The notes beneath the pieces are model-generated. The model saw nothing but the letters and a program-made list of their open reading frames with translations. It was not told the DNA's origin and did no database searches. 10,268 nt of DNA, from positions 1 through 10,268 of the forward strand of contig JAYWGM010000007.1 in assembly GCA_043778225.1 (NCBI GenBank), written 5' to 3'. Positions 1 through 10,149 of the stretch are shown piece after piece; position 1 is the stretch's first letter; every line of letters begins with the position of its first letter. Source of the DNA: Deinococcales bacterium (GTDB lineage Bacteria > Deinococcota > Deinococci > Deinococcales > JAAFIG01). The translations under genes were made by a program, and so were the position numbers.

Positions 1-813
1 CCCACCAGCCCAAAGTGCAATCTTGCCACTCGAGCCTTGGTTCAAGACAATGTTCTGATTAGCAATAACCGCCAATTCGCCACTCGAGCTTATCAAACCT
101 TGATTAACCGTCAAGTTCTTACTCGAGATAACACTGCTGACTCCTGTATTCTCGAGTTTTCCGTTAAAAGTCAAATCTTCATCAGTCACAATTCTCGAGT
201 TAGTTAAAACTGTGGTCTGGTTAAACTGAGCGCTTTTGGTAATGATTCGGCTATTCTCGAGTGTGATTCCTCGATTGCTGTTCAGGCTTTGTTCAACTAT
301 CAGCACAGCATTTTTGATGGTGGCGACTGCGTTTAAGTTTATGCTTCCTTTGATCAGTACAATTTTATTATCGAATCTCGAGGAAATATCACTGCTCGAG
401 TTGAGGTTTAGGCTACCTTGGACTGTAACCACTGGAATGGCGGTGTACTTGGCTTTCAAAGCGATTACATCTGGTTTTGGAACGGTCACGATTGGTGCTA
501 AGAATTTTGGTTTACCGTTTAAGCAAAAACCTTGTCCAGAATTATCCGAGCAACTGGCAGCACTGGTACTCGAGACTTGACCACCATTCAAGACAATGTT
601 TCTCGAGTTTAAGATTAAGCCAGTATTTGCATGGACACTCGAGCCATTTTGTAAAGTGAACCCTTGGTTACTCTGAAAAGTTGTCCCAGCGATAATTCCG
701 TGTAGCATTATATCTTTTTGGCTTGTCATTCCTCGAGCTTCGGTTTGTTGTTCTTGGATTGGAGCTTGTCCACAAGATGCTATTGCAGTGGCTAGGATTG
801 CCGATATGAGCAT
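1..813 (-). CDS. Putative lipoprotein with beta-solenoid-like repeats (partial; 3' end lies beyond the left edge)
   Basis: Manual translation gives a frame open from ATG 813 to base 1 (271 codons, no stop): MLISAILATAIASCGQAPIQEQQTEARGMTSQKDIMLHGIIAGTTFQSNQGFTLQNGSSVHANTGLILNSRNIVLNGGQ...NQNIVLNQGSSGKIALWAGG. A hydrophobic stretch ends in the lipobox IAS-C (Cys14). GGGAGG lies 4 nt upstream. An alternative in-frame ATG is at 882. The ORF track omits it because it has no stop in the window. Confidence 0.85.
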   Translation of the reverse strand, partial: MLISAILATAIASCGQAPIQEQQTEARGMTSQKDIMLHGIIAGTTFQSNQGFTLQNGSSVHANTGLILNSRNIVLNGGQVSSTSAASCSDNSGQGFCLNGKPKFLAPIVTVPKPDVIALKAKYTAIPVVTVQGSLNLNSSSDISSRFDNKIVLIKGSINLNAVATIKNAVLIVEQSLNSNRGITLENSRIITKSAQFNQTTVLTNSRIVTDEDLTFNGKLENTGVSSVISSKNLTVNQGLISSSGELAVIANQNIVLNQGSSGKIALWAGG

Positions 814-976
814 AAAACCTCCCTTCTTTTTGTAGAGTTTAGGTTGTTGCGTAATTGTATTCCAGTCAGGTAAAAAATCCATATTTGTAGCCTACCTGTA
901 CATCCCAATTTTTCTTGCTCAAAACCAACATGACCAAGAAATACTAACAATTTGCTAAAACAAAATACTACCTCTC

Positions 977-991: not shown

Positions 992-2233
992 ATGCTGCCA
1001 ACTGAGTTTTTAACCAATACCTTTCGTGGTGGAGTGATTACTCCTCATGCGCTCGAGCTTGATGCCGATAGCCTCGAGTTAGCCCGTGGCATCATCGATT
1101 TATTTGTACTGCATCATGGGCGCTCAAGACGCGACCTCGACGAAGCCCTAGAAGCCGATACCGCTGACAGCACGGATTACCGCGTCCGACGAGGTTTAGC
1201 TCATTTATTGTACTCAGAATGCTGCGAATTTAGCAGCGTCAGCCTGATTGAACCAAGTCTGGCTCGAGCCGAAGTTTTTGCGTTGGCAGCCAAGCATCGT
1301 CCAACACTGGCGACAGCCGCCGCCACACTGGATATACAGGCCACTATCTTCACTCAAAACCTTAGCCGCCCTGTTTCTCGAGCCAACCTCGAGCAGAGCC
1401 TTTACGCCGACTTACGCGAGGCTCAAGTGATTGCGTTGACTGCCCCAACGCCAGAATGGTTACTCGAGCGTTACAATTTAGCTCAAGCCCAAGGGATTTT
1501 GTACCGTGCTTCAGAATTATTGGTCACAGCCCATCGCAACAACCCGGGGCAGTACAAGCTCTTATTTAAATACCTCAAACTTTTTGGTTTAATGCACCGC
1601 ATCAACGGCGACCCCGATGCAGGTTATACCATCATGCTCGATGGACCCTCGAGCTTATTTCAGCCCAGCACCCGCTATGGTATTGCTTTTGCCAAGTTTT
1701 TACCTGCGCTACTGCACGTCTCGCGCTGGACACTGCAAAGTAAAATTCAGGTTCGTCACTACGATGGTTCTCGAGACCAAGCCGAATACACCCTCGATCA
1801 TACCACCAGCCTTAAATCTCATTACAGTGCTGGCAAAATGTTTGATAGTCTGCTCGAGCAATCCTTTGCTTCACGGTTTTCACAACTCGAAACCCCATGG
1901 CAACTCGAGCGCGAAGTGGACATTGTAGACCTTGGTGGAACAGTCATGATTCCAGATTTTAGACTGGTTCACCCAGACGGAAGAAGCATTTTGCTCGAGA
2001 TTATTGGATATTGGCGAGCCGAGTATTTGGAGCGTAAACTCCGAAAAATTCAAGCCTCCGAGCGTTCAGACCTGATTCTCGCGGTTTCACAACGATTGAA
2101 TTTAGGCAAAGAAACAGCCATCAAACTCGAGCGCTATAACAACCAAATCATTTGGTTTAAGGGTGTTCTCGAGCCAAAAAACGTTCTAAAACTTGCCGAG
2201 CGTTTGCCGAGTTCTCGAGTTTACCCAATATAA
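992..2233 (+). CDS. DUF790 family protein (Bax1-like predicted nuclease, restriction-endonuclease-like fold)
   Basis: 413 aa. Motifs recognised from the family: N-terminal MLPTEFL, RGLAHLL, LYADL, LLERYNLAQAQGILYRA, LDGPSSLF..STRYG..FAKFLPALL, FDSLLEQSFA, and C-terminal WQLEREV...IPDF...LLEIIGYW.AEYLERKL (PD-...-E nuclease-like core). Confidence 0.9.
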   Translation: MLPTEFLTNTFRGGVITPHALELDADSLELARGIIDLFVLHHGRSRRDLDEALEADTADSTDYRVRRGLAHLLYSECCEFSSVSLIEPSLARAEVFALAAKHRPTLATAAATLDIQATIFTQNLSRPVSRANLEQSLYADLREAQVIALTAPTPEWLLERYNLAQAQGILYRASELLVTAHRNNPGQYKLLFKYLKLFGLMHRINGDPDAGYTIMLDGPSSLFQPSTRYGIAFAKFLPALLHVSRWTLQSKIQVRHYDGSRDQAEYTLDHTTSLKSHYSAGKMFDSLLEQSFASRFSQLETPWQLEREVDIVDLGGTVMIPDFRLVHPDGRSILLEIIGYWRAEYLERKLRKIQASERSDLILAVSQRLNLGKETAIKLERYNNQIIWFKGVLEPKNVLKLAERLPSSRVYPI

Positions 2234-2272: not shown

Positions 2273-3829
2273 TTACTTAATGATGTCAGCTGTAACAACA
2301 ACCAAGAGTTGCTTTTGCTCATCTGAAGTTTTGGTGGTCTTGAACAAATCACCAAGAATCGGAATGGCGCTCAGAATTGGTACACCACTGGTGGTCGAAT
2401 CCTGAGTAGTTGCTAATAAACTGCCAAGCAGGAGTGTTTGACCACTTTTTAAACGAACCACAGATTTAGCGGTACTGTCCACAAAATCAATACGGTTTGG
2501 ATTTGGATTTGTAGAGTTTTGTACCGAACTGACTTCTGCACTCAAATCTAAGGTAATACTGCCATCGGCTGCAACTGTAGGAGAAACATCAATCTTGACA
2601 CCGAAGGTCAGCGTTTTATTGATTGGCGCTCCTCCCTGCCCTGTACTTGCAATGCTAATCTCAATTCGTCCGCCTGAGCGAATCGAACCCGTACCGTTGT
2701 TAAGCACTGTTAAACTCGAGTCGTTGATACGGCGTGACAAACCCTGAGTCTCGAGCGCATTCAAAGCGGCTGTCACATTCAGTCCAGCTAAACTACTGGT
2801 TGCATTACCTACAAAGTTAAGCACTCCACCCAGAATCGAACCTGAAAAATTACCTAAACCAATACTTGTCCAGTCAACACCTAAAGAACGGGTTGCGGAA
2901 TCACTATTTTCTTGAATACGGATACCAATATTGACCAGTTGTTGCGGTTTATCTAAACGGGGCAGCAATGCAATCAATCCAGCCACTGAGGCTTCAGGTC
3001 CACGGATAATCAGGGTATTCGAGCCATCATCTGAAACAATGCTGATGTTTGGAGTTGCCTGTACCGCCGCCGCATTTGGCGCAGCCACGCCTTGGGTGGT
3101 GTCTCCTGCGGTGCTTGGTCCCGCCACCAATTGCCTTAGAATTTCGGCAAGACGACTGGCTTTACCAAAAGAAACCGCATAAATTTCTTGAATCACCCTC
3201 GAGGTATCGGTTGGCAGTTGCGCCGCCGCAACATCTATTTGCGCCAACAAAGCAGCAATGTCAGTATGCTGTGTTTGGGTGGCAGTAATCACCAAGCGAT
3301 TAGAACCCGTCACTGGAACAATTTTCACATCAGCAAATTGGGCGCTCAGGGCTTTGGCAATATTTTCGGCATTGGATTTGATTTCGTAAGTCTTGACCAC
3401 CAAAACGGCTTGTGGTGTATTCGGGGTAACTGGAGCAGTTTGTACTGGGGCTGGTGGACGGAATTTCTGTACCACTTCGGGTGGTCCAACCACAACAACA
3501 TCGTTTGGCAAAAGTTCGTAATCCAAATTATTCAAAGAGACAACCATACTCCAAACCTGACGGAACGGAATAGCTTTGAAGTTATAGGAGACTGTTTTAG
3601 CTGCGATACCTTCAGTCGTGGCTTGGAGCTTGACCAAACTCGCGAGTTCGCGTAAATACTGCGACAAATCCATACCACTGCTGGGAATGTCAACGGTCAC
3701 CAATTGGTCAAACCGAGCATCGTTAGGAAAGCGGTCGCTGACAATTCGCTGAGCAAAAGCGGGGGTGCATAGACTTGAGAGGGCGAAAAAGGCGATCAGA
3801 AGTACGTTTCTGAGTTTTGTCATAGTCAT
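2273..3829 (-). CDS. pilQ: Type IV pilus secretin PilQ (short form)
   Basis: Signal peptide ending AFA, then an N0-like domain, two Secretin_N-like repeats (..SNRLVITAT.. and ..SNTLIIRGP..), and a C-terminal secretin domain with LKSGQTLLLGSLL and GVPILSAIPILGDLFK. It is the last gene of a pilMNO operon. I placed the start at ATG 3829 because GAGG (3837-3840) lies 7 nt upstream; GTG 3832 and ATG 3823 are alternatives. Confidence 0.9.
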   Translation of the reverse strand: MTMTKLRNVLLIAFFALSSLCTPAFAQRIVSDRFPNDARFDQLVTVDIPSSGMDLSQYLRELASLVKLQATTEGIAAKTVSYNFKAIPFRQVWSMVVSLNNLDYELLPNDVVVVGPPEVVQKFRPPAPVQTAPVTPNTPQAVLVVKTYEIKSNAENIAKALSAQFADVKIVPVTGSNRLVITATQTQHTDIAALLAQIDVAAAQLPTDTSRVIQEIYAVSFGKASRLAEILRQLVAGPSTAGDTTQGVAAPNAAAVQATPNISIVSDDGSNTLIIRGPEASVAGLIALLPRLDKPQQLVNIGIRIQENSDSATRSLGVDWTSIGLGNFSGSILGGVLNFVGNATSSLAGLNVTAALNALETQGLSRRINDSSLTVLNNGTGSIRSGGRIEISIASTGQGGAPINKTLTFGVKIDVSPTVAADGSITLDLSAEVSSVQNSTNPNPNRIDFVDSTAKSVVRLKSGQTLLLGSLLATTQDSTTSGVPILSAIPILGDLFKTTKTSDEQKQLLVVVTADIIK

Positions 3830-3844
3830 CACTATACCTCGAGT

Positions 3845-4792
3845 TTATGGTTTTTGTAACTTAATGGTAATGGTTTGCTCGCCCAATGCGAGAACCGCTT
3901 CGGTTTCGGAAAATGAACGTAAGGTCACTTTGCTATCCTTAAAGATAGCCGACCCAACTTCAACCACAGCAATACCTTGGCTGGTGCGAAAAACAGCTTT
4001 ACGCACTGCCGAAGAAAGAACAAAGCCAACAAACTGAACCTTTTGGGTATCAACAAAAACCTCGAGTTCCGGACGAACAATCACCGGCGGGGCAACCACC
4101 ACAGGAGGCACAACCACGACTGGTTCTGGCTTAGGTCGGAGCAAGTCTATCGAAGCACTTGAACCAACAGTTACGATGTCATTTGAAACGATGTAATAGT
4201 CGAGCGAACCAAGTGCCAAAAGCACATTCCAAGCCAAACGCAATGGCAAGCCTTTTAGGTTGTAATCAATGTTACGGTTTGGGATATTGACTGGAATAAC
4301 CTGCAATTTAGCCAAAGCAACCACTTCGCGCACCGCAGCTTCGAGGGTTTTGCCACCCGAAAAGTTCAGGCTTACGGGTGCGGCAGAAGCCGTCGTTGGA
4401 AGGGTAGCAGGGCTGGCATTCAGAACCCGAAGCCGTTCAATCGACTCTTTATTTGAAACAACCATGACATTCTTCTCGAGAAGCTCGTAATCAAAGTTAC
4501 CCAGTGCCATCGTCACATTCCATGCGTCACGGAACTTCACATCGTTTAATGGATAATTGACCGCTTGTTGTGGCACATTCTCGAGAATTGGTTGTAGACC
4601 GATTGTTCCAGCCAATTCTTTGATGTAGGTATTTAAGTCAATACCAGCAGGCAGATTGACGGTGACACGTTGATCAAAACGCGCCTCTTTGGGCAGACGA
4701 TCATCATAGGGTTGTTGCGCCAAACCGACGCTGCCCCCTATCCAGAGTGCCATTGCGAGTAGCGAAATTTGAATTTTCATGGACGACCTCAT
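3845..4792 (-). CDS. Secreted protein: two PilQ-N0-like domains plus a C-terminal PilW/PilP-like domain (putative pilus adaptor)
   Basis: 315 aa with a Sec-type signal peptide (..GGSVGLA-QQ). Hand alignments: aa 30-112 match the PilQ N-terminus (about 37/84 identical); aa 139-220 repeat aa 42-123 (27/82, ungapped); aa 242-315 match the C-terminus of the upstream gene (about 29/75). The ATG overlaps the upstream TGA (ATGA); ATG 4780 is an alternative start. The CDS itself is secure, the function is inferred. Confidence 0.8.
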   Translation of the reverse strand: MRSSMKIQISLLAMALWIGGSVGLAQQPYDDRLPKEARFDQRVTVNLPAGIDLNTYIKELAGTIGLQPILENVPQQAVNYPLNDVKFRDAWNVTMALGNFDYELLEKNVMVVSNKESIERLRVLNASPATLPTTASAAPVSLNFSGGKTLEAAVREVVALAKLQVIPVNIPNRNIDYNLKGLPLRLAWNVLLALGSLDYYIVSNDIVTVGSSASIDLLRPKPEPVVVVPPVVVAPPVIVRPELEVFVDTQKVQFVGFVLSSAVRKAVFRTSQGIAVVEVGSAIFKDSKVTLRSFSETEAVLALGEQTITIKLQKP

Positions 4793-6333
4793 CGTTTTAC
4801 CAAGGGTAGAGTTAAGAGTTCATTACCGAGCGCCAAAACCACTTCTGTTGGACTGACTGATTTAAGAATGATATTTGAATCACGAACCAAGGCATCTCCT
4901 TCGGCAACTGACAGTAAACCACGATTTGACTGAAAAAAGGCTTTCTTGACTGTGCCTATTGAAAAACCAGCATACTCGAGACGCAAATCATCCTGAACCA
5001 CACGGCGCAACTCGAGTAAATCGGCTGAGGGTGTTGCTGGGGCTGGGGTGGTAACGATTGGGTCGGTGGGGGTTGTTACAGGAGCAGTGGTTATTGGGTC
5101 AGTTGGGGTTGTCACAGGGGCAGTGGTTGTCGGGTCAATTGGGGTTGGAGTCGTCGGGGTTGTCACAGGAGGCGTGGTTGTATTGGTTGTTGGGGCAGTT
5201 GTCGTTGGGGTTGTTGGGGTCGTTGGGGTCGTTGGGGTTGTTGGGGTCGTCGGGGTTGTTGGAGTTGTATTAGTCGTTGGCGTTGCTGGAGCAGTTGTCG
5301 TTGGAGTCGTTGGGGCTGGCTCAATCTTAAAAATCGGTGGCTCAGGTGTTGTAGGACGAGTTGTTGAGGTCGTACTTGGCGTTTGAGTGACCGATGGTAC
5401 TTGTGGGTTGCTCGAGGGAACAGTGGCTGACGTATTTGTACCAGAAGTATTGCCAGTTGTCGAAGTTGTACTTGGCGGAGTCACGGCTTGAATTGGTGGC
5501 TGCACTCGAGGTGAAGATGCAAGAATTGACGGGGTAATCGAAAAAGCTGGGCGGGCAATTGGTGTGGTGGCGATTGGGCGTGGCTTTGAGGCAACAGCTT
5601 GAGGCGTGCTGGTAACAACTGTTTTTGGAATAACTGGGCGCTGTGCCGAAACCACAACAGGAATTGGCTTAATAGCAGTGGTTGTTCCAGCCCCAGCCAC
5701 TGCTCCTGTATTGACTGCTGGGCGCGGTACAAATGGCGAAGTAACGATTTGGGTTCTGATGGTTGGGGTTGCTGTGGGTCGTGGCACACTCACACTGACG
5801 GTTGGCTGAAAGCTAACTTCAACTGGCGCACCTTGGCGACCAGTATTCACCACAGCAACAGTTGTACCCGACTGCGGCAATGGCGCAAAAGGGTTCACAA
5901 CTTTAGGGGCAACTGGCTTAGGGGCTGGTTTGATGGCTGGCTTGGTCGCGGCTGTTGCTGTTGCACTTGTCGTGGGTGTGGCTGGCTTTGGTTTATCAGC
6001 AATCAATGGGATTGTCCCCGTTTCAACACCTGTACCCGAGGCTGTTGTATTTGGGGCTGTTGGGTCTGGTGTTGTTGTTGTGGTCGTTGGGTCTGGTGTG
6101 GTTGGTGTTGTCGGGTCGGGTGTTGTGATGGTTTGGACAATTGGGTCTGGTACTGGCGCATTGGCTGTACCTGAATTCAAGGCAAACCAAACGCCTACAC
6201 CTCCAAGCAGGACTGCTAGGGCTGTGCCTAAAACAACTGGGGTAGAAACCTTAGGTAAGTTCATACCCTGTTTTTTAGGGGCTGTGGTATCAGTTACTTC
6301 AGACTCGGACAGATCATCTTCGAAGTCGCTCAT
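4789..6333 (-). CDS. pilW: PilW-like (Thermus nomenclature) competence/pilus protein with a membrane anchor, long Pro/Thr-rich linker and PilP-like C-terminal domain
   Basis: Lies between pilO and pilQ. It has an acidic N-terminus, one TM helix (VVLGTALAVLLGGVGVWFAL), an NPFAPL motif, about 390 aa of P/T-rich sequence, and a C-terminal beta domain (LEYAGFSIGTVKKAFFQSNRG...VVLALG). Start moved to ATG 6333 because GGAGG (6341-6345) is 7 nt upstream and the ATG overlaps the pilO TGA; 514 aa. Confidence 0.75.
   Translation of the reverse strand: MSDFEDDLSESEVTDTTAPKKQGMNLPKVSTPVVLGTALAVLLGGVGVWFALNSGTANAPVPDPIVQTITTPDPTTPTTPDPTTTTTTPDPTAPNTTASGTGVETGTIPLIADKPKPATPTTSATATAATKPAIKPAPKPVAPKVVNPFAPLPQSGTTVAVVNTGRQGAPVEVSFQPTVSVSVPRPTATPTIRTQIVTSPFVPRPAVNTGAVAGAGTTTAIKPIPVVVSAQRPVIPKTVVTSTPQAVASKPRPIATTPIARPAFSITPSILASSPRVQPPIQAVTPPSTTSTTGNTSGTNTSATVPSSNPQVPSVTQTPSTTSTTRPTTPEPPIFKIEPAPTTPTTTAPATPTTNTTPTTPTTPTTPTTPTTPTTPTTTAPTTNTTTPPVTTPTTPTPIDPTTTAPVTTPTDPITTAPVTTPTDPIVTTPAPATPSADLLELRRVVQDDLRLEYAGFSIGTVKKAFFQSNRGLLSVAEGDALVRDSNIILKSVSPTEVVLALGNELLTLPLVKR
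5041..5136 (-). repeat. Coding 36-bp imperfect tandem repeat (DPxTTAPVTTPT x2 plus a partial copy)
   Basis: Asp codons recur at 5136, 5100 and 5064. The peptide reads DPTTTAPVTTPT-DPITTAPVTTPT-DPIVTTPA. Confidence 0.85.
5201..5263. repeat. Coding 9-bp tandem repeat (GTYGTYGGR)x7 encoding (PTT)n
   Basis: Read directly: gtcgttggg gttgttggg gtcgttggg gtcgttggg gttgttggg gtcgtcggg gttgttgga. Confidence 0.9.
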
Positions 6334-6995
6334 CGCGGAACCTCCGGTGTGGTTGGATTTGGACAAAGCGGATTAAGTGGGCGATCGACAACCCCTCGAG
6401 CCGCATCATAGACATAAGCGATTACGGAAACGGCGGCGGTTAGTTTAGGGTCGGCGGTACTTTCTGTGGTGGCATTGTTGCCGCCGCCAACGTTAAGGTT
6501 AATCGAGTCCATACGCAAGAAACGCTGTTGACTCTCGAGTGACTGCAAAATACCAATCATGGAGGTAAAAGAGCCAGTCACATTTAAGGCTGTACTGACC
6601 GCCCGTACTCCAGCCGGTAGCGTACCTGAAGTTGCACCTGCTGACCTTGCTAGTGTATTGATTTGCCCTTTGTTGTTGCCAATTTGCAGCTTGAAGGTTC
6701 GCATCAAGTCGGCATACTGCTCTTTACTCGGCAAGGCATTCAAAAACTCACGGCGTTGGACTTGTAGGTCAGCCACCACCGTACAAAGCTGTGGCACATT
6801 GGCTTTAGCCCGGTTGCCAACAATGATTTTCTGGTCAAGGTCAGCAATTTCAGTGCGTAAAACAGCTTGTTCATCTAGGGTCACTTGGTACATATTAAAG
6901 TACCAAAGAACAGCCGCCAAAATGGTTAGGACAATCACAATCAGCGCAATAATTTGACCCGTCAGACGTGAAAAAAGCGAAGAGATATTTGACAT
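6330..6995 (-). CDS. pilO: Type IV pilus assembly protein PilO
   Basis: 221 aa with an N-terminal TM helix, a coiled coil, FLNALPSKE, and LNVTGSFTSMIGILQSLESQQRF. Third gene after pilM and pilN, with a TAATG overlap with the pilN stop. Confidence 0.88.
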   Translation of the reverse strand: MSNISSLFSRLTGQIIALIVIVLTILAAVLWYFNMYQVTLDEQAVLRTEIADLDQKIIVGNRAKANVPQLCTVVADLQVQRREFLNALPSKEQYADLMRTFKLQIGNNKGQINTLARSAGATSGTLPAGVRAVSTALNVTGSFTSMIGILQSLESQQRFLRMDSINLNVGGGNNATTESTADPKLTAAVSVIAYVYDAARGVVDRPLNPLCPNPTTPEVPR

Positions 6996-7684
6996 TATTG
7001 CCCCCCCGTTGGTGGTGGTGTGACGGGTGGTGTTGGCACAGATGAATTTGCAGCATCCACCAAGCCAACCGTGGCATTAAAAGTATAGAGTAGGCTCGAG
7101 GTATTGCTGCCTTGTCCTCGAGACACCGAACCCAGATTAATTCCAAAACGGTCGTTGTTTTCAAAAGCACGTTGGAACGTTTCAACATCGTTTAAGCTGG
7201 TGGCTTGGGCATTAAAAGTGACCTCAGTGGCAATTGCCTTACCATCATAAGCGCCACTGGCAGCTTGACTGGTAACGGCGGCGGCATCCACACGACGCAA
7301 AGTCATGTTTTGCAATGAAGCCGCCAAACGGTTGGGGTTGTCGGTGCTGCGTGGAATCTGTGAAGTGAAAGTGCGGATTTCTCGAGACCACGCCACCCGC
7401 TCGCGCTCGAGTTGGGCTTTGATGCTGGTCGTGGCTTCGAGTTCGCGCTGTTGGGCGGTCAGTTCATTTTGGGCTGTGATGTATTTTTGCAACAACGCCA
7501 ATTCGGTGTTGCGGTCATCTCGAGTTTGCGCCAATTGGTCACGTTCGGCATTGGCAGCCAGCTGCATCCCAATCATCACCGCTAAAGCCACCAATGGCAC
7601 AGCAATCGCAATTAAACGCCACCAACCCGGCTCAACGCGCTTACGCAGTGTCTTTGGTAAGAGGTTAATTCTAATCAAGACCAC
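6995..7684 (-). CDS. pilN: Type IV pilus assembly protein PilN
   Basis: N-terminal IRINLLPK (the PilM-binding INLLP motif) followed by a TM helix, a coiled coil and a periplasmic domain. The start is GTG 7684 or TTG 7678, overlapping the pilM 3' end. Confidence 0.92.
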   Translation of the reverse strand: MVLIRINLLPKTLRKRVEPGWWRLIAIAVPLVALAVMIGMQLAANAERDQLAQTRDDRNTELALLQKYITAQNELTAQQRELEATTSIKAQLERERVAWSREIRTFTSQIPRSTDNPNRLAASLQNMTLRRVDAAAVTSQAASGAYDGKAIATEVTFNAQATSLNDVETFQRAFENNDRFGINLGSVSRGQGSNTSSLLYTFNATVGLVDAANSSVPTPPVTPPPTGGQ

Positions 7685-8849
7685 TCACCCCCCGCATGGC
7701 AAGACCGAGCGGTACAGCTAACTCGGCTGCCGAAGAACGTAAAAATGCAGAATCAAATAAACTGTCGTCAAAACTGACCGAGAGCCATGGATCGCCAACT
7801 TCGACTCGAAAACCAAGGGTGTCGCCAATTGCATCGGCAAGCCCACGCAATTTTGCGCCGCCGCCCGAGAGGTACATTCGGTCTACCGTAATATCGCCAG
7901 ACTGGACACGGTAAAACTCGAGTGAACGACGGATTTCGGTGGTCAAATCGAGTAACGGTGTACGAATCGCATCAAAAATTTTGGCTGGCGAATACTTTTC
8001 TTTGTTGACATCAAAGTCGAGTAAATCCTCTTCATCTTCGGTAGGAATGGTGGCAGTGGCGTATTGCAACTTAATTTCTTCGGCAGCATTAAAGTCTAGG
8101 TTAAAGGCTTTTTGAATTGCCACCGTAAAATCGTCGCCAGAGACATTGATGGTACGGTTTAAGAGAATTCGCTCGCCGCGTACCAGTGCGATGTTACTGC
8201 TCGAAGCACCAATCTCGAGAACCACACCGACCTCGCCACCTTCGGTAAACCGAGCGCCCGTTAGGGTAGTTTTATTCAGATGCTCACCAAGGAGACTACC
8301 CTTTAAGGCTCGCAAGCCAGCAAATGGTTTGACATCTATAACCACTGGCTCGAGACCCGCCAGTTTAATCACTTCGACCAAACGGGCAATCACTTCTTGT
8401 TGGGCAGCAGCAATCATTACTTCCATCTGACCATCGGCGGGAATGTCGTCTGGATTATCGAGTGTATCGTAATCAAGCACAACTTCGTCTATCGGAAAGG
8501 GAATATAGCGTTCAGCTTCCCATTTGATGGCATCGTCTAGCTCTTTGCTGGTCATTTTTGGCACAGAGACAATACGGGTAATCGCCGATTGCTGCGCTAC
8601 GGCAGTGACTACATACTTGTTACGGATTTTTTTCTCCGCAAGCGCGGCTTTGATTTCATTGGCAATGGCTTGTGGCTCGACCACTTGCCCGTCGCTGACA
8701 GCGCCGGGAGGGGTTGGACGAATCGCAATACTACGCAATGTTGGCGGACTGCCCGCCTTTAACTCCACAATTTTGATCGTACTCGTACCAATCTCGAGAC
8801 CAATAGCCTCGATTTTAGGATTGACGAGCCGATTCATCAGGTCTTTCAT
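7671..8849 (-). CDS. pilM: Type IV pilus assembly protein PilM (actin/FtsA-like)
   Basis: Motifs IGLEIGTSTIKIVEL, AIKWEAERYIPFPIDEVVLDY, LEIGASSS, EIRRSLEFY, YLSGGGAKLRGL and AVPLGLAMRG. Start moved to ATG 8849 because GAGGGGG lies just upstream (8853-8859); 392 aa. Confidence 0.95.
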   Translation of the reverse strand: MKDLMNRLVNPKIEAIGLEIGTSTIKIVELKAGSPPTLRSIAIRPTPPGAVSDGQVVEPQAIANEIKAALAEKKIRNKYVVTAVAQQSAITRIVSVPKMTSKELDDAIKWEAERYIPFPIDEVVLDYDTLDNPDDIPADGQMEVMIAAAQQEVIARLVEVIKLAGLEPVVIDVKPFAGLRALKGSLLGEHLNKTTLTGARFTEGGEVGVVLEIGASSSNIALVRGERILLNRTINVSGDDFTVAIQKAFNLDFNAAEEIKLQYATATIPTEDEEDLLDFDVNKEKYSPAKIFDAIRTPLLDLTTEIRRSLEFYRVQSGDITVDRMYLSGGGAKLRGLADAIGDTLGFRVEVGDPWLSVSFDDSLFDSAFLRSSAAELAVPLGLAMRGVSGLD

Positions 8850-9078
8850 ATGCCCCCTCTGGTCGAGGAACTCCAAATTGCGCGACGACTTTGATTAAAT
8901 CCACTTGCAGACCCGACAAGTATACAACGGAAATGCGTTTCATAGTACAAACGTGTTCGGGGGATGACTGCTGGCGTGCCAAACATAGGCTTTTGCCAGC
9001 ACCTGACTTCAAAATGAGAATCGGCAATCATATTCACTGCTCAGTATACAGTGACAGCGACACAAATTGCATCTATCC

Positions 9079-9126: not shown

Positions 9127-10149
9127 TTAAGCTGTTCTGTAGGCTTCAAGCAGCACCTGGGCAAATTCGGAAGTGGACTGTGTACCACCAAGGTCGCGGG
9201 TGCGTGGTCCATGCTCGAGGGCAATTTCGACGGCTTTCTCGAGTCGGGTGGCGGCTGATACTTCGCCAATATGCCGCAGCATTAAGGCGGCAGCTAGAAC
9301 AGTGGCGGTTGGATTGGCTATTGCCTGCCCAGCAATATCAGGGGCGCTACCATGAACACTTTCAAAAACTGCATATTGATCGCCGATGTTGCCACTGGCA
9401 GCAATACCAAGCCCACCGACCAAACCAGCCGTTAAATCCGAAATAATATCGCCAAAAAGGTTGGTCGTGACAATCACATCAAATTGCTCGGGTCTCGAGA
9501 CCAATTGCATGGCGCAGTTATCGATAATAATGTCCTTGACAGCTATATCAAAGCTCGAAGCCGCCGCCATGGCGGTGTTTAGGAACAGACCTTGGGTCAC
9601 GGGCAGCACATTGGCTTTATGGGCAATGTGCAGCAACTTTCGCTCACGCCCTGATGCCAGTCGTGCCGCATATGCACCAATTCGTTGTGAAGCCCGCTTG
9701 GTGATAACCGCTTCGGCAATGGCTAGTTCGCCATCCATATACGAGCGTTCTTGTTCGACATACAAACCTTCGGTGTTTTCGCGGACAATCACCAAATCCA
9801 CACCCGCCCTCGAGCCGGGGACAGCATGGTGTTTAGCAGGGCGCACATTGGCGTATAAATCCAGCGCGCGGCGCATATAGCGAATCGCGCCTTGGAAACC
9901 AGCCACTTTTTTGGAGGGGCTGGTGGCTGCCCCAAATAAGGTCGCTTTGGCACTTTTAACAGTTTCTAGGGTGATGTCTGGAATACTGTTACCAGTGCGT
10001 TCAAACAATTCCCAGCCAGCTTCAGCGTGCAACCACTCAAACTCGAGTTCACCCGTGACCTGCATACCCTCGAGAACGTGCTTAGCGGCTTGGATGACCT
10101 CATGTCCGATGCCATCGCCTTCGATTAAACAAATGGTGTGTTTTGCCAT
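9127..10149 (-). CDS. hicd: Homoisocitrate/isocitrate dehydrogenase (alpha-aminoadipate lysine pathway)
   Basis: 340 aa beta-decarboxylating dehydrogenase. [60 protein letters not shown] and HGSAPDIAG closely match Thermus/Deinococcus HICDH as I recall it. It retains the Arg of GAIRY associated with dual isocitrate activity. Confidence 0.85.

Follow-up and report, generated by a model that had tools for sequence, protein, structure and literature searches.

The window, that is the whole 10,268-nt stretch of DNA analysed (contig JAYWGM010000007.1), carries a pilMNOWQ operon on the minus strand with an extra gene between the PilW-like gene and pilQ. The operon is tightly packed, with pilM, pilN and pilO (6330..8876) as its upstream genes, and has the following features:

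7671-8876, minus strand: pilM (Pfam PilM_2, 1e-56)
6995-7684, minus strand: pilN (Pfam PilN_bio_d, 2.6e-21)
6330-6995, minus strand: pilO (Pfam T2SSM_b, 2.2e-8; PilO, 4.2e-4)
4789..6366, minus strand: PilW-like gene, 525 aa, with a TM helix (44-62), a 382-aa Thr/Pro-rich linker and a C-terminal HR domain (from the TM helix and composition)
4792..5016, minus strand: HR domain of the PilW-like protein (residues 451-525), parent of domain 3 of the extra protein (BLASTP; AF2 pLDDT 74.1; Foldseek)
3845..4792, minus strand: extra gene, open reading frame of 315 aa
3845..4780, minus strand: extra gene from the conserved ATG, 311 aa (GAGG at 4790-4787; orthologue starts)
2273..3832, minus strand: pilQ secretin, 519 aa, with an N0-type domain, two Secretin_N domains and a barrel (Pfam Secretin 1.9e-33; Secretin_N 4.1e-18)
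3449..3757, minus strand: N-terminal N0-type domain of PilQ (residues 26-128), parent of domains 1 and 2 of the extra protein and predicted socket for domain 3

The 525-aa gene has the features of a PilW, namely a TM helix, a long flexible linker, an HR-like C-terminal domain and a position between pilO and pilQ, while its protein gave no match to Pfam or NCBIfam. The best Foldseek match of its HR domain was the HR domain of GspC (3oss_C; E 2.7e-3; TMt 0.77; rmsd 2.2), with PilP and PulC HR among the next. PilW is described as having an HR-like C-terminal domain and as bridging PilQ to PilMNO, and the stability of Thermus PilQ is reported to require it (PMC13039148). A search for canonical PilP (PF04351) gave no match in the window's genome and equally none in control genomes (0/14), so that its result carries no information. 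The closest solved relative of PilQ is DR_0774 from D. radiodurans (8co1; E 1.3e-52). The PilQ N0 aligned to residues 109-144 of DR_0774, which fall within what its authors name the inner-membrane-related region (PMC10828601).

The extra gene was confirmed as an intact open reading frame of 315 aa that begins with a signal peptide, as the first-pass annotation had read it. The ATGA overlap by which that annotation coupled the gene to its neighbour is present in the sequence (4792-4789, overlapping the pilW stop) but does not appear to be the real start. Translation probably starts at a second ATG (4780, MKIQ), 9 nt past the pilW stop, since all 14 aligned database orthologues (14/14) and the profile match begin at that ATG; a GAGG is located 6 nt upstream of it. 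Residue numbers for the extra protein follow the 315-aa frame (ATG 4792). The gaps to the operon neighbours are 9 nt and 12 nt, and within the operon around the extra gene a single promoter-like consensus match (3860-3831) and weak terminator-like stems were all that was seen, fewer than in shuffled sequence. The location of the gene inside an operon with few internal signals suggests fixed co-expression rather than regulation.

The only hydrophobic segment of the extra protein is the N-terminal signal peptide, with the most hydrophobic 19-mer at residues 7-25. The protein contains no Cys and thus no lipobox, so the mature form is predicted to be soluble in the periplasm; it has neither the lipid anchor of PilP nor the TM helix of GspC and PilW that provide inner-membrane attachment. 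No Pfam family matched the 315-aa protein at E<=1, including STN (PF07660), type_II_gspD_N0 (PF21305), PilP (PF04351), GspC, TcpQ (PF10671), Secretin and Secretin_N. The PilQ N-terminal domain was also unmatched by PF07660 and PF21305. NCBIfam gave a chance match only (E 0.086) and a PDB sequence search found no relative, the best hit (E 1.9) being an unrelated chain. The lack of a secretin barrel proposed at first pass was borne out by Pfam Secretin and Secretin_N, which were present in the neighbouring PilQ and absent from the extra protein, which ends with its HR domain. Having neither the PF00263 barrel nor the Secretin_N ring domains, the extra protein falls outside the secretin (PilQ/GspD) family.

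Domain composition of the extra protein

The extra protein could be divided into five parts:

4718..4780, minus strand: cleavable Sec signal peptide (residues 5-25; GLA then QQ; cleavage site from reading the sequence, no predictor)
4415..4708, minus strand: domain 1 (residues 29-126), secretin-N0 fold (35% identity to PilQ N0, E 4e-22; VIA fold matches)
4139..4378, minus strand: domain 2 (residues 139-218), second N0-fold copy, without the N-terminal motif (36% identity to PilQ N0, E 6e-13)
4073..4138, minus strand: Pro/Val-rich linker (residues 219-240, 22 residues), predicted disordered (pLDDT <50 at 228-239)
3848..4072, minus strand: domain 3 (residues 241-315), beta sandwich of the GspC-HR/PilP type (38% identity to the C-terminus of the PilW-like protein, E 7e-12; VIA)

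Pairwise BLASTP, with E-values that refer to single comparisons, aligned residues 24-173 of the extra protein with PilQ 26-179 (54/155 identical; E 4e-22), residues 145-229 with PilQ 51-134 (31/85 identical; E 6e-13), and domain 1 with domain 2 (23/70 identical, 33%; E 1e-14). These values lie far beyond chance and near the counts made at first pass, and they bear out that domains 1 and 2 are homologous to each other and to the N-terminal domain of PilQ. The homology to PilQ begins at residue 24, at the signal-peptide cleavage site. Domain 1 retains the LPxxARFDQxVTV motif, which in PilQ is found before and within strand beta1; the motif is near-invariant in PilQ (P36, R40, F41, D42), and P34, R38, D40 and Q41 were invariant in an alignment of 14 orthologues of the extra protein.

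The AF2 model of the extra protein had a pLDDT of 80.7, with values of ~90 in domains 1 and 2. VIA matched domain 1 to the N0 domains of GspD (4jtm; Z 8.4; rmsd 2.0; 74 of 81 aligned) and InvG (2y9k; Z 9.4) and to DotD (Z 9.6), and domain 2 to EscC (3gr5; Z 10.6) and the N0 of Neisseria meningitidis PilQ (4ar0; Z 9.9; rmsd 2.4; 84 aligned). Two secretin-N0-type folds, as first proposed, are thus predicted on this model (Z 8.4-10.6), and Foldseek matched 4jtm to the N0-type domains of the protein with a TMt of 0.73. An Atlas feature search returned N0/STN clusters with scores of 0.75-0.86, which are leads as they fall under the tool's level of 0.9. The secretin structure from D. radiodurans (8co1) was absent among the fold matches listed, which is no sign of a different fold.

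The Pro/Val linker placed after domain 2 at first pass was recovered with 9 Val and 8 Pro in 23 residues and a pLDDT <50 at 228-239. An RPKP stretch following domain 2 aligns with the RPPAP that follows the PilQ N0, and from the sequence the linker is a probable fusion junction of both parental linkers.

Residues 244-314 of the extra protein aligned with residues 455-524 of the PilW-like protein (27/71 identical, 38%; E 7e-12), confirming the match of domain 3 to the PilW-like C-terminal domain, and the homology extends to the final residues of both proteins. VIA matched domain 3 to GspC HR (3oss_C; Z 8.6; rmsd 2.5; 65/65 aligned) and to PilP (3jc8_Pa, Z 7.9; 2lc4, Z 7.8; 2y4y, Z 7.8). A Z near 8 is in the caution range for VIA, yet these matches span the domain in full and every one is an HR or PilP entry, which agrees with the PilP/GspC-HR fold, a six-strand beta sandwich, that had been proposed (Z 7.8-8.6). 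Judged by sequence, the extra gene is paralogous to PilW in part only, through the HR domain, and is not itself a PilW. We conclude with high confidence that the extra protein is a secreted, soluble periplasmic protein consisting of a signal peptide, two N0 domains, a Pro/Val linker and an HR domain.

Distribution, origin and selection

Within a phylum sample of 301 genomes from 55 genera, the full architecture was found in four genomes, all of them from the window's genus. At order level, full-length copies were present in 5 of 41 genomes, with contig-edge fragments of the gene in two further genomes of the genus. A word-indexed homologue search recovered close orthologues only (73-100% identity); partial relatives emerged only with an exhaustive profile search of 1.84 billion representatives, which gave 62 matches and a single cluster with the full architecture. 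Two multi-stretch matches (P0021, 1301 aa; P0055, 1894 aa) were repetitive proteins that matched neither N0 nor HR and showed spurious, scattered fragments of Pfam families; both were dropped. The orthologues, drawn from several sources, fall into 15 clusters when grouped at 90% identity, and the gene is intact in all five full loci, with no internal stops in any match from the order and phylum genome samples. An assembly artefact was ruled out by the identical gene order in five genomes and 15 database clusters. A listing of sequencing runs contained three DNA runs from one study, two of them possibly the source of this DNA, and no RNA run. No description of an N0-N0-HR protein was found in the literature searched, from which most subscription journals fell out of scope. 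Outside this genus the architecture turned up neither in the sampled genomes, nor among the 1.84 billion representatives, nor in that literature, in line with the candidate new subunit of the first-pass annotation, and we consider the extra gene with high confidence to be a new gene that the pilMNOWQ operon has gained in this genus only.

In four loci from three other genera of the family, pilW directly adjoins pilQ and each protein has a single N0 or HR domain. PilQ frames in other genera of the window's own family measure 562-745 aa. Four other-genus loci without the extra gene have PilQ frames of 501-518 aa with the same layout (N0, Secretin_N, barrel), and the suggested co-occurrence of the gene with a short PilQ, together with the idea that a short PilQ needs an extender, was rejected. 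Since the other genera examined do without the extra gene, four of these loci with an equally short PilQ, no structural need for it is evident.

The homology to PilQ from the cleavage site onwards and to PilW as far as the stop codon is the pattern expected of a tandem-duplication junction gene. We infer that the gene arose when a tandem duplication spanned the pilW/pilQ boundary, its breakpoints lying in the pilW linker and in the linker that follows the PilQ N0, so that pilW and pilQ stayed intact. The junction would fuse the 5' end of pilQ (ribosome-binding site, signal peptide and N0) to the 3' end of pilW (HR and stop), and the second N0 would stem from a later internal duplication. In a tree of N0 domains, domain 1, domain 2, the PilQ N0 of the genus and one further PilQ formed a clade (support 98/83) with the other genera of the family outside, and in a tree of HR domains, domain 3 was sister to the PilW HR of the genus (85/83); the HR tree is moderately supported, and the alignments of these short domains span 78-93 columns. 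The first-pass annotation had called the gene long diverged from both neighbours. The copies are indeed just 33-38% identical, but the trees place the origin inside the lineage of the window's own family, so that on these sequences the divergence is fast, not old.

Change since the duplication was least in the PilQ N0 (stem 0.33) and domain 3 (0.43), and greatest in domain 1 (0.96), domain 2 (1.59) and the PilW HR of the genus (0.93). This is the distribution expected if domain 3 and the PilQ N0 retained the old interface, and the stem lengths are suggestive of such an interface being kept while the PilW HR and domains 1 and 2 may have co-adapted as a new pair.

The dN/dS ratio (omega) of the extra gene was 0.08-0.11 overall and <0.2 in each domain (domain 1, 0.03-0.06; domain 2, 0.05-0.17; domain 3, 0.08-0.15), compared to 0.06-0.12 for pilQ and 0.07-0.12 for pilN, all values being rough as dS is saturated (>1). 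Protein identity within the genus was similarly 72-85% for the extra protein and 73-85% for PilQ. With an omega of 0.08-0.11 and intact copies in 5/5 full loci, neither neutral evolution (dN/dS near 1) nor frequent disruption was seen, and the gene is under purifying selection.

Predicted docking and possible roles

Complex prediction of PilQ 26-128 with residues 238-315 of the extra protein gave ipSAE values of 0.53, 0.73 and 0.73 (median 0.73), with 0.00 for the best of three controls. The ipSAE mark is reached by 116/157 solved complexes and 2/215 mismatched pairs, counts that apply only roughly here because alignments made for this analysis were used. Partner pLDDT was at least 87 and contact agreement between the runs was given as at least 0%, with one run scoring lower (0.53). 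The predicted interface joins beta1 and alpha1 of the N0 to the first strands of the HR domain, and the GspC-GspD contact is reported to use the same mode (PMC3169554). The prediction supports docking of domain 3 on the PilQ N0 in the manner of GspC-GspD. As similar HR-N0 complexes have been solved (3OSS, 6HCG), the pass denotes likeness, not proof, and may reflect memory of those structures; nor does the method distinguish domain 3 from its paralogue, the PilW HR. Of the bindings proposed at first pass, that of domain 3 to the PilQ N0 is supported by this prediction, at the level of likeness only.

Our leading, still tentative reading, with a probability of roughly 0.45, is that the extra protein acts as a stoichiometric adaptor inserted in the link between PilW and PilQ. 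Domain 3 would occupy the beta1/alpha1 edge of the PilQ N0, as GspC-HR does on GspD-N0, domain 1 with its kept beta1 motif would offer a substitute socket to which membrane-anchored PilW could dock by its HR domain, and domain 2 and the rigid linker would serve as a spacer or an additional tier. Counting against the adaptor, the predicted socket residues are identical to those of the PilQ N0 at only 11/21 positions in domain 1 and 5/21 in domain 2, and domain 3 and the PilW HR have only 5/17 plug residues in common.

The extra protein could instead be a secretin assembly or stabilising factor with no relay to PilW, a reading that we regard as unlikely. Its HR domain would grip the PilQ N0 during or after export and the two N0 domains would form a hoop around or under the PilQ N-terminal ring, making the protein a soluble counterpart of GspB/OutB and of BfpG/TcpQ; PilW would keep the link to the platform and cede part of its role in secretin stability, the PilW dependence of Thermus PilQ (PMC13039148) being in keeping with this. 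The predicted docking of domain 3 on the PilQ N0 fits such a factor, as does the HR domain of GspB/OutB, which is reported to bind the secretin N0 and to be required for secretin assembly (PMC9239104). BfpG, a signal peptide followed by an N0-like domain, is likewise reported to bind BfpB 17:17 and to promote its multimerisation (PMC12531336), and a BfpG chain (9u5s_R) was among the Foldseek matches (TMt 0.62). However, domain 3 on the canonical N0 edge would displace the PilW HR, which would then require another site, and a simple hoop does not explain why domain 1 conserves the motif of the HR-binding edge so strictly.

Paralogy of the extra protein to both interface domains would also suit a competitive modulator or decoy, capping the PilQ N0 through domain 3 and/or sequestering the PilW HR through domains 1 and 2, and so uncoupling the secretin from the platform, for example in alternating between DNA uptake and pilus extension or in holding unengaged secretins closed. 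The predicted docking takes the very edge that the PilW HR would use, and the HR domain of OutB and that of OutC are proposed in one account to compete for one N0 surface (PMC9239104). This role is nevertheless distinctly unlikely: the gene is embedded in the operon at 9 and 12 nt from the genes beside it, with few promoter- or terminator-like sites, all three domains are under similar constraint, and a decoy would need neither a second N0 domain nor a rigid linker that is conserved.

Head-to-tail self-assembly, with the HR domain of one molecule on an N0 of the next, would yield chains, or stacks of rings, that vary in length between PilW and PilQ, the stacking envisaged at first pass. Such a self-extending connector, with stacked 12-15-fold rings or chains under PilQ and the last unit capped by PilW, seems improbable to us. 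One chain does carry a plug and two sockets, which the 22-residue Pro/Val linker would keep apart, but the divergence of the predicted sockets from the PilQ N0 noted above means that domain 3 need not recognise domains 1 and 2. That the gene is a decaying, functionless by-product of duplication is hardly credible, for despite its narrow spread (1/55 sampled genera) it is intact in 5/5 full loci and 15 clusters (90% identity), with no stops within any match and an omega of 0.08-0.11 at dS >1, selection data that already contradict decay.

Relation to known secretin partners

The HR domains of PilW, PilP and GspC resemble domain 3 in the six-strand beta sandwich (Z 7.8-8.6) and in the predicted N0 interface of the type seen in the GspC-GspD crystal structure. 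PilW and GspC, however, have a TM helix and PilP a lipobox, whereas the extra protein is without a membrane anchor and has two N0 domains ahead of its HR domain where PilW-type proteins have a long linker. GspB/OutB/ExeB of some type II secretion systems is likewise described as a second HR protein aimed at the secretin N0 surface that the main coupler also uses (PMC9239104), and GspB (4wfw) was among the fold matches. GspB differs in its inner-membrane anchor, its C-terminal extension touching the peptidoglycan and its lack of N0 domains, and common ancestry with the extra protein is shown no further than the fold.

BfpG and TcpQ, and more loosely DotD (3ady and 7mud; VIA Z 8.3-9.6), also combine a signal peptide with an N0 fold without a barrel and are encoded next to the secretin gene, and BfpG is reported to bind its secretin stoichiometrically (PMC12531336). 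Each of them has a single N0-like domain and lacks an HR domain, compared to two N0 domains and an HR domain in the extra protein; the target of BfpG is a special segment of the lipoprotein-secretin and not an HR domain; and the N0 copies of the extra protein, unlike BfpG/TcpQ, are recent paralogues of the N0 of its own PilQ. The extra protein is thus an analogue of BfpG/TcpQ and not a member. RcpC, the alignment complex of the Tad pilus, described as a distinct protein forming a conduit or connection in the periplasm beneath the secretin (PMC12307814), is in function comparable to a modular periplasmic extension, but its domain families are unrelated, and it is TM-anchored and has an experimentally shown dodecameric ring, whereas the extra protein is known from sequence and models.

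PilQ of D. radiodurans (DR_0774) and T. thermophilus has stacked N-domain rings, and domains 1 and 2 derive from the N-terminal-most domain of PilQ, which in D. radiodurans forms the ring closest to the inner membrane. Long secretins such as T. thermophilus PilQ carry their extra rings in cis (N0-N5; PMC5745081), in contrast to the N0 copies on a separate polypeptide seen here. As stand-alone N0-like partners (BfpG/TcpQ) and second HR proteins (GspB/OutB) are already known, neither the parts nor the principle is new, only their combination in one soluble protein.

In type IV pili and type II secretion alike, the contact between N0 and HR domains is the universal joint that connects outer-membrane secretins with platforms in the inner membrane. 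In the operon studied, a single soluble protein has received copies of both halves, and it has been under selection throughout the radiation of the genus. The host genus is uncultured and known from metagenomes only, which sets a practical limit. If the extra protein is an adaptor, the joint would be modular enough for daisy-chaining, and the operon would offer recently diverged, paralogous N0/HR pairs as a natural system for studying how duplication leads to a re-partitioning of binding specificity, as well as a clear case of a gene born where a tandem duplication joined two genes in the operon of an envelope-spanning machine. If the protein were self-extending, the length of the channel or tether would be set by subunit number and not by the length of a single polypeptide, and a trans-envelope machine would have gained a new tier via a single tandem duplication across a gene boundary.

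The pilus operon and its additional gene

A type IV pilus operon of tightly packed genes occupies the (-) strand of the window, with an extra gene between the genes for a PilW-like protein and PilQ:

7671-8876 (-), pilM (Pfam PilM_2, 1e-56)
6995-7684 (-), pilN (Pfam PilN_bio_d, 2.6e-21)
6330-6995 (-), pilO (Pfam T2SSM_b 2.2e-8, PilO 4.2e-4)
4789-6366 (-), gene for the PilW-like protein, 525 aa (no match in Pfam or NCBIfam)
3845-4792 (-), extra gene, a 315-aa ORF (no match to curated sequence models)
2273-3832 (-), pilQ (Pfam Secretin 1.9e-33, Secretin_N 4.1e-18)

The PilN_bio_d domain of PilN is of the Thermus type, DR_0774 of D. radiodurans (8co1; E 1.3e-52) is the closest solved relative of PilQ, and Deinococcota make up most of an Atlas cluster of comparable secretins of 500 aa; all three point to a probable source in the Deinococcota. 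The genome assembly comprises 107 contigs and is 89% complete. Upstream of the operon, with a gap of ~250 nt to pilM, lies an Iso_dh gene of the isocitrate/isopropylmalate dehydrogenase family (9127-10149 (-); Pfam 3.2e-96). A DUF790 gene (992-2233 (+); Pfam E 2.1e-125), which we take to code for a Bax1-type nuclease, partner of XPB-like helicases, is convergent with pilQ, and between the two stops (2238-2254) a hairpin of high G+C content, with runs of T on either strand, is a plausible bidirectional terminator. A partial ORF of 294 aa (1-882 (-)) that runs off the window has an N-terminal lipoprotein-like signal (Cys behind a hydrophobic stretch) followed by repetitive sequence rich in Asn/Ser/Thr/Gly, and may code for a beta-helix-like surface protein.

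The first-pass annotation had described the extra gene as coupled by an ATGA overlap. Two in-frame ATGs are present at 4778-4792 (-) and the upstream one does overlap the pilW stop; however, the start in 14 of 14 aligned orthologues is the second one (4780), which has a GAGG 6 nt upstream, so the gene probably starts 9 nt past the pilW stop. The pilQ start follows ~12 nt past the stop of the extra gene. The same annotation had proposed that the product joins two N0-type domains homologous to the PilQ N-terminus (D1, D2) to a C-terminal HR/PilP-type domain (D3). Pfam and NCBIfam models matched none of the three and Pfam found no secretin barrel, as had been claimed, and pairwise alignment bore out every proposed similarity: residues 24-173 with PilQ 26-179 (54/155 identical, E 4e-22), D1 with D2 (23/70, E 1e-14) and residues 244-314 with PilW-like 455-524 (27/71, E 7e-12). 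Residues 145-229 also aligned with PilQ 51-134 (31/85, E 6e-13); D2 lacks the N-terminal LPxxARFDQ motif. The PilQ similarity begins at the signal-peptide cleavage site and the PilW similarity extends to the C-termini of both proteins.

Fold comparison supported the proposed architecture. An AF2 model built from a 41-row alignment (15 orthologues plus PilQ N0 and PilW HR segments of related loci) had a mean pLDDT of 80.7 and a pTM of 0.60, with ordered domains at 29-126, 139-218 and 241-315 and disorder at residues 1-28 and 228-239. Foldseek, followed by a VIA second look at its matches, paired D1 with GspD N0 (4jtm; Z 8.4, rmsd 2.0, 74 aligned), InvG N0 (2y9k; Z 9.4) and DotD (Z 8.3-9.6), D2 with EscC (3gr5; Z 10.6) and the PilQ N0 of N. 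meningitidis (4ar0; Z 9.9), and D3 with GspC HR (3oss_C; Z 8.6, rmsd 2.5, 65/65 aligned) as well as PilP (Z 7.8-7.9). D1 also scored with hubs of phage baseplates and signalling domains of TonB receptors, which have the N0/STN-type fold in common. The copied PilQ domain aligns with DR_0774 residues 109-144; in PMC10828601, residues 34-155 are named the inner-membrane-related region, below what its authors call 'N0'. This counterpart is the ring nearest the inner membrane.

The PilW-like protein has a single TM helix at residues 44-62, a linker of 382 residues (29% Thr, 21% Pro) and a C-terminal domain (AF2 pLDDT 74.1) whose top Foldseek match was GspC HR (3oss_C; E 2.7e-3, TMt 0.77, rmsd 2.2), with PilP (2lc4, 3jc8_Pa, 2ivw, 2y4y) and PulC HR (6hcg_e) among the following matches. 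We named it for the agreement of this layout with T. thermophilus PilW. According to PMC13039148, the gene for that protein sits between pilO and pilQ, its C-terminal domain is structurally GspC HR-like, and its proposed role is to connect PilQ with PilMNO. The linker is coded by tandem 9/27/36/51-nt repeats, notably at 5057-5291 and 6043-6127 (-), which give a strong local GC skew (0.37). PilW frames measure 527-592 aa in the window's genus; in other genera, those that are full-length measure 382-500 aa. Together these features suggest an unusually long, possibly glycosylated periplasmic tether.

Distribution and maintenance

A word-indexed search returned 15 clusters (90% identity) from several sources, of 307-312 aa, which share 73-100% identity with the query across 99% of its length. 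An exhaustive profile search across 1.84 billion representatives yielded 62 matches at E<=1e-3, just one of which, the protein's own cluster, fell below 1e-30. The remaining 61 were checked with domain HMMs: two were discarded as repetitive false matches and 59 each had one N-terminal N0 or one C-terminal HR domain (HR in 7 proteins), the single-N0 matches being full or fragmentary secretins, mostly ~450-850 aa. In none of the 59 did the HMMs detect N0 together with HR, or N0 twice. Outside the window's genus, a soluble protein combining N0 and HR was not found in sequence databases, nor was one found described in the literature searched, outside which most subscription journals lay. The Atlas holds barrel-less proteins with STN/N0 features in other phyla, among them clusters of 318-398 aa from Verrucomicrobiota, Bacillota and Planctomycetota as well as an unnamed 356-aa cluster, mostly Planctomycetota, that aligns with residues 32-299 at TM 0.49; these are leads that may represent independent multi-N0 accessory proteins of analogous architecture.

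Full-length copies were present in 5 of the 41 genomes of the order sample, every one in the window's genus, and in two further genomes of the genus the gene's 3' end lay at a contig edge directly upstream of pilQ. An eighth, 57% complete, gave no match whatever to the extra-gene query, so its pil locus may be unassembled. An evenly drawn phylum sample of 301 genomes yielded full-length copies in four (1 of 55 genera). Within the family, pilW directly abuts pilQ in 4 loci that belong to 3 other genera. PilQ frames of only 501-518 aa, with the N0, Secretin_N and barrel layout of the window's PilQ, are present in four other-genus loci that lack the extra gene, and the idea of an extender required by short secretins is therefore not supported.

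In a comparison of four genomes from the genus, the extra protein shared 72-85% identity with the copy in the window; the corresponding ranges were 73-85% for PilQ, 69-81% for PilO and 79-88% for PilN.

dN/dS (Nei-Gojobori)
extra gene, 0.08-0.11
pilQ, 0.06-0.12
pilN, 0.07-0.12
pilM, 0.02-0.04
pilW, 0.18-0.27
D1, 0.03-0.06
D2, 0.05-0.17
D3, 0.08-0.15

dS was saturated (0.84 to >2, some undefined) and the ratios are rough, yet far below 1. Neither a ratio near 1 nor the frequent disruption that would have argued against function was seen: the extra gene gave 0.08-0.11 and no copy in the order and phylum samples contained an internal stop, indicating that the gene is maintained.

Proposed origin by duplication

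In an N0 tree (81 domains, 93 columns) built, like the HR tree, on short domains, D1, D2, the genus's PilQ N0 and that of one further 510-aa PilQ formed a clade (support 98/83), outside which the PilQ N0 domains from other genera in the family fall; D1 and D2 were weakly sister (94/38). In the HR tree (26 domains, 78 columns) the genus's PilW HR was the sister of D3 (85/83). The 510-aa PilQ (P0018, a match of the profile search) shares 55% identity with the PilQ of the window; its N0 branches beside D1 and D2 and not the genus's PilQ N0 (weak support, 97/43), and it may mark the lineage nearest the duplication.

At its 5' end the extra gene corresponds to the 5' end of pilQ, at its 3' end to that of pilW, which makes a single tandem duplication the simplest history. 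With breakpoints in the Pro-rich pilW linker and the Pro-rich linker behind PilQ N0, such an event would spare both parents, and its junction would yield signal peptide-N0-linker-HR; the second N0 would stem from a later internal duplication. We infer this two-step history from sequence comparison, in which RPKP behind D2 still aligns with RPPAP behind PilQ N0 and no nucleotide trace of the duplication is left at 33-38% identity.

Predicted interface and candidate role

We predicted the complex of PilQ 26-128 (26-row alignment) with extra-protein residues 238-315 (15 rows), as the first-pass annotation had suggested. ipSAE was 0.53, 0.73 and 0.73 (median 0.73) compared to 0.00 for the best of three controls, with contact agreement between runs of at least 0% and partner pLDDT of at least 87; in a benchmark, rough here because own alignments were used, the mark was attained by 116 of 157 complexes of solved structure and by 2 of 215 pairs of mismatched partners. 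The confident interface comprised PilQ 40, 43-50, 52-55, 58, 62-63, 65-68 and 90 (strand beta1, helix alpha1) and, in D3, 255-263, 265, 267, 269, 274 and 276 (first strands) with 296 and 314-315. This predicted mode is that of GspC HR-GspD N0, described in PMC3169554 as antiparallel beta1-beta1 augmentation with alpha1 contacts. The model favours D3-PilQ N0 binding without proving it, and in it D3 still resembles a competent plug for PilQ N0. Given the solved structures of related complexes and the close paralogy of PilW HR with D3, the result speaks for plug-likeness and for neither binding itself nor a choice of D3 over PilW.

Our leading reading, to which we give a probability of roughly 45%, is that the extra protein is an adaptor inserted between PilW HR and PilQ N0, in a chain that would run PilW HR, D1, (D2, linker), D3, PilQ N0. 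It is favoured by the beta1-edge motif, near-invariant in PilQ and retained in D1, and by the predicted socket residues, of which 11/21 are identical to PilQ in D1 compared to 5/21 in D2. Stem lengths were 0.33 for PilQ N0, 0.96 for D1 and 1.59 for D2, and 0.43 for D3 compared to 0.93 for the genus's PilW HR; mean patristic distances to family-level outgroups were 1.47, 2.34 and 3.06 for PilQ N0, D1 and D2. Slow evolution of D3 and PilQ N0 compared to PilW HR, D1 and D2 fits an old interface kept and a new pair co-adapted.

By analogy with GspB/OutB and BfpG combined, the protein could instead be a stabilising factor that would hold on to PilQ N0 and arrange its own N0 domains round the ring without a PilW relay, an unlikely reading. 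Somewhat less likely still is a competitive modulator, for which OutB and OutC, two HR proteins with a proposed competition for one N0 surface, offer a precedent (PMC9239104). Head-to-tail self-assembly appears improbable, and a decaying by-product, contradicted by the selection data, very much so.

The domains concerned and the plug-and-socket principle, by which the HR of PilP, GspC or PilW sits on a secretin N0, are textbook knowledge. Second HR proteins (GspB/OutB; PMC9239104), stand-alone N0-like secretin partners (BfpG/TcpQ, DotD; for BfpG, PMC12531336) and separate-subunit periplasmic conduits (RcpC; PMC12307814) are already described. Parts and principle being known, the new element, judged from the sequence, would be the joining of N0 and HR domains in one soluble protein. 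While its mechanism is one that we infer, the extra gene is real and conserved, with a clear evolutionary origin.
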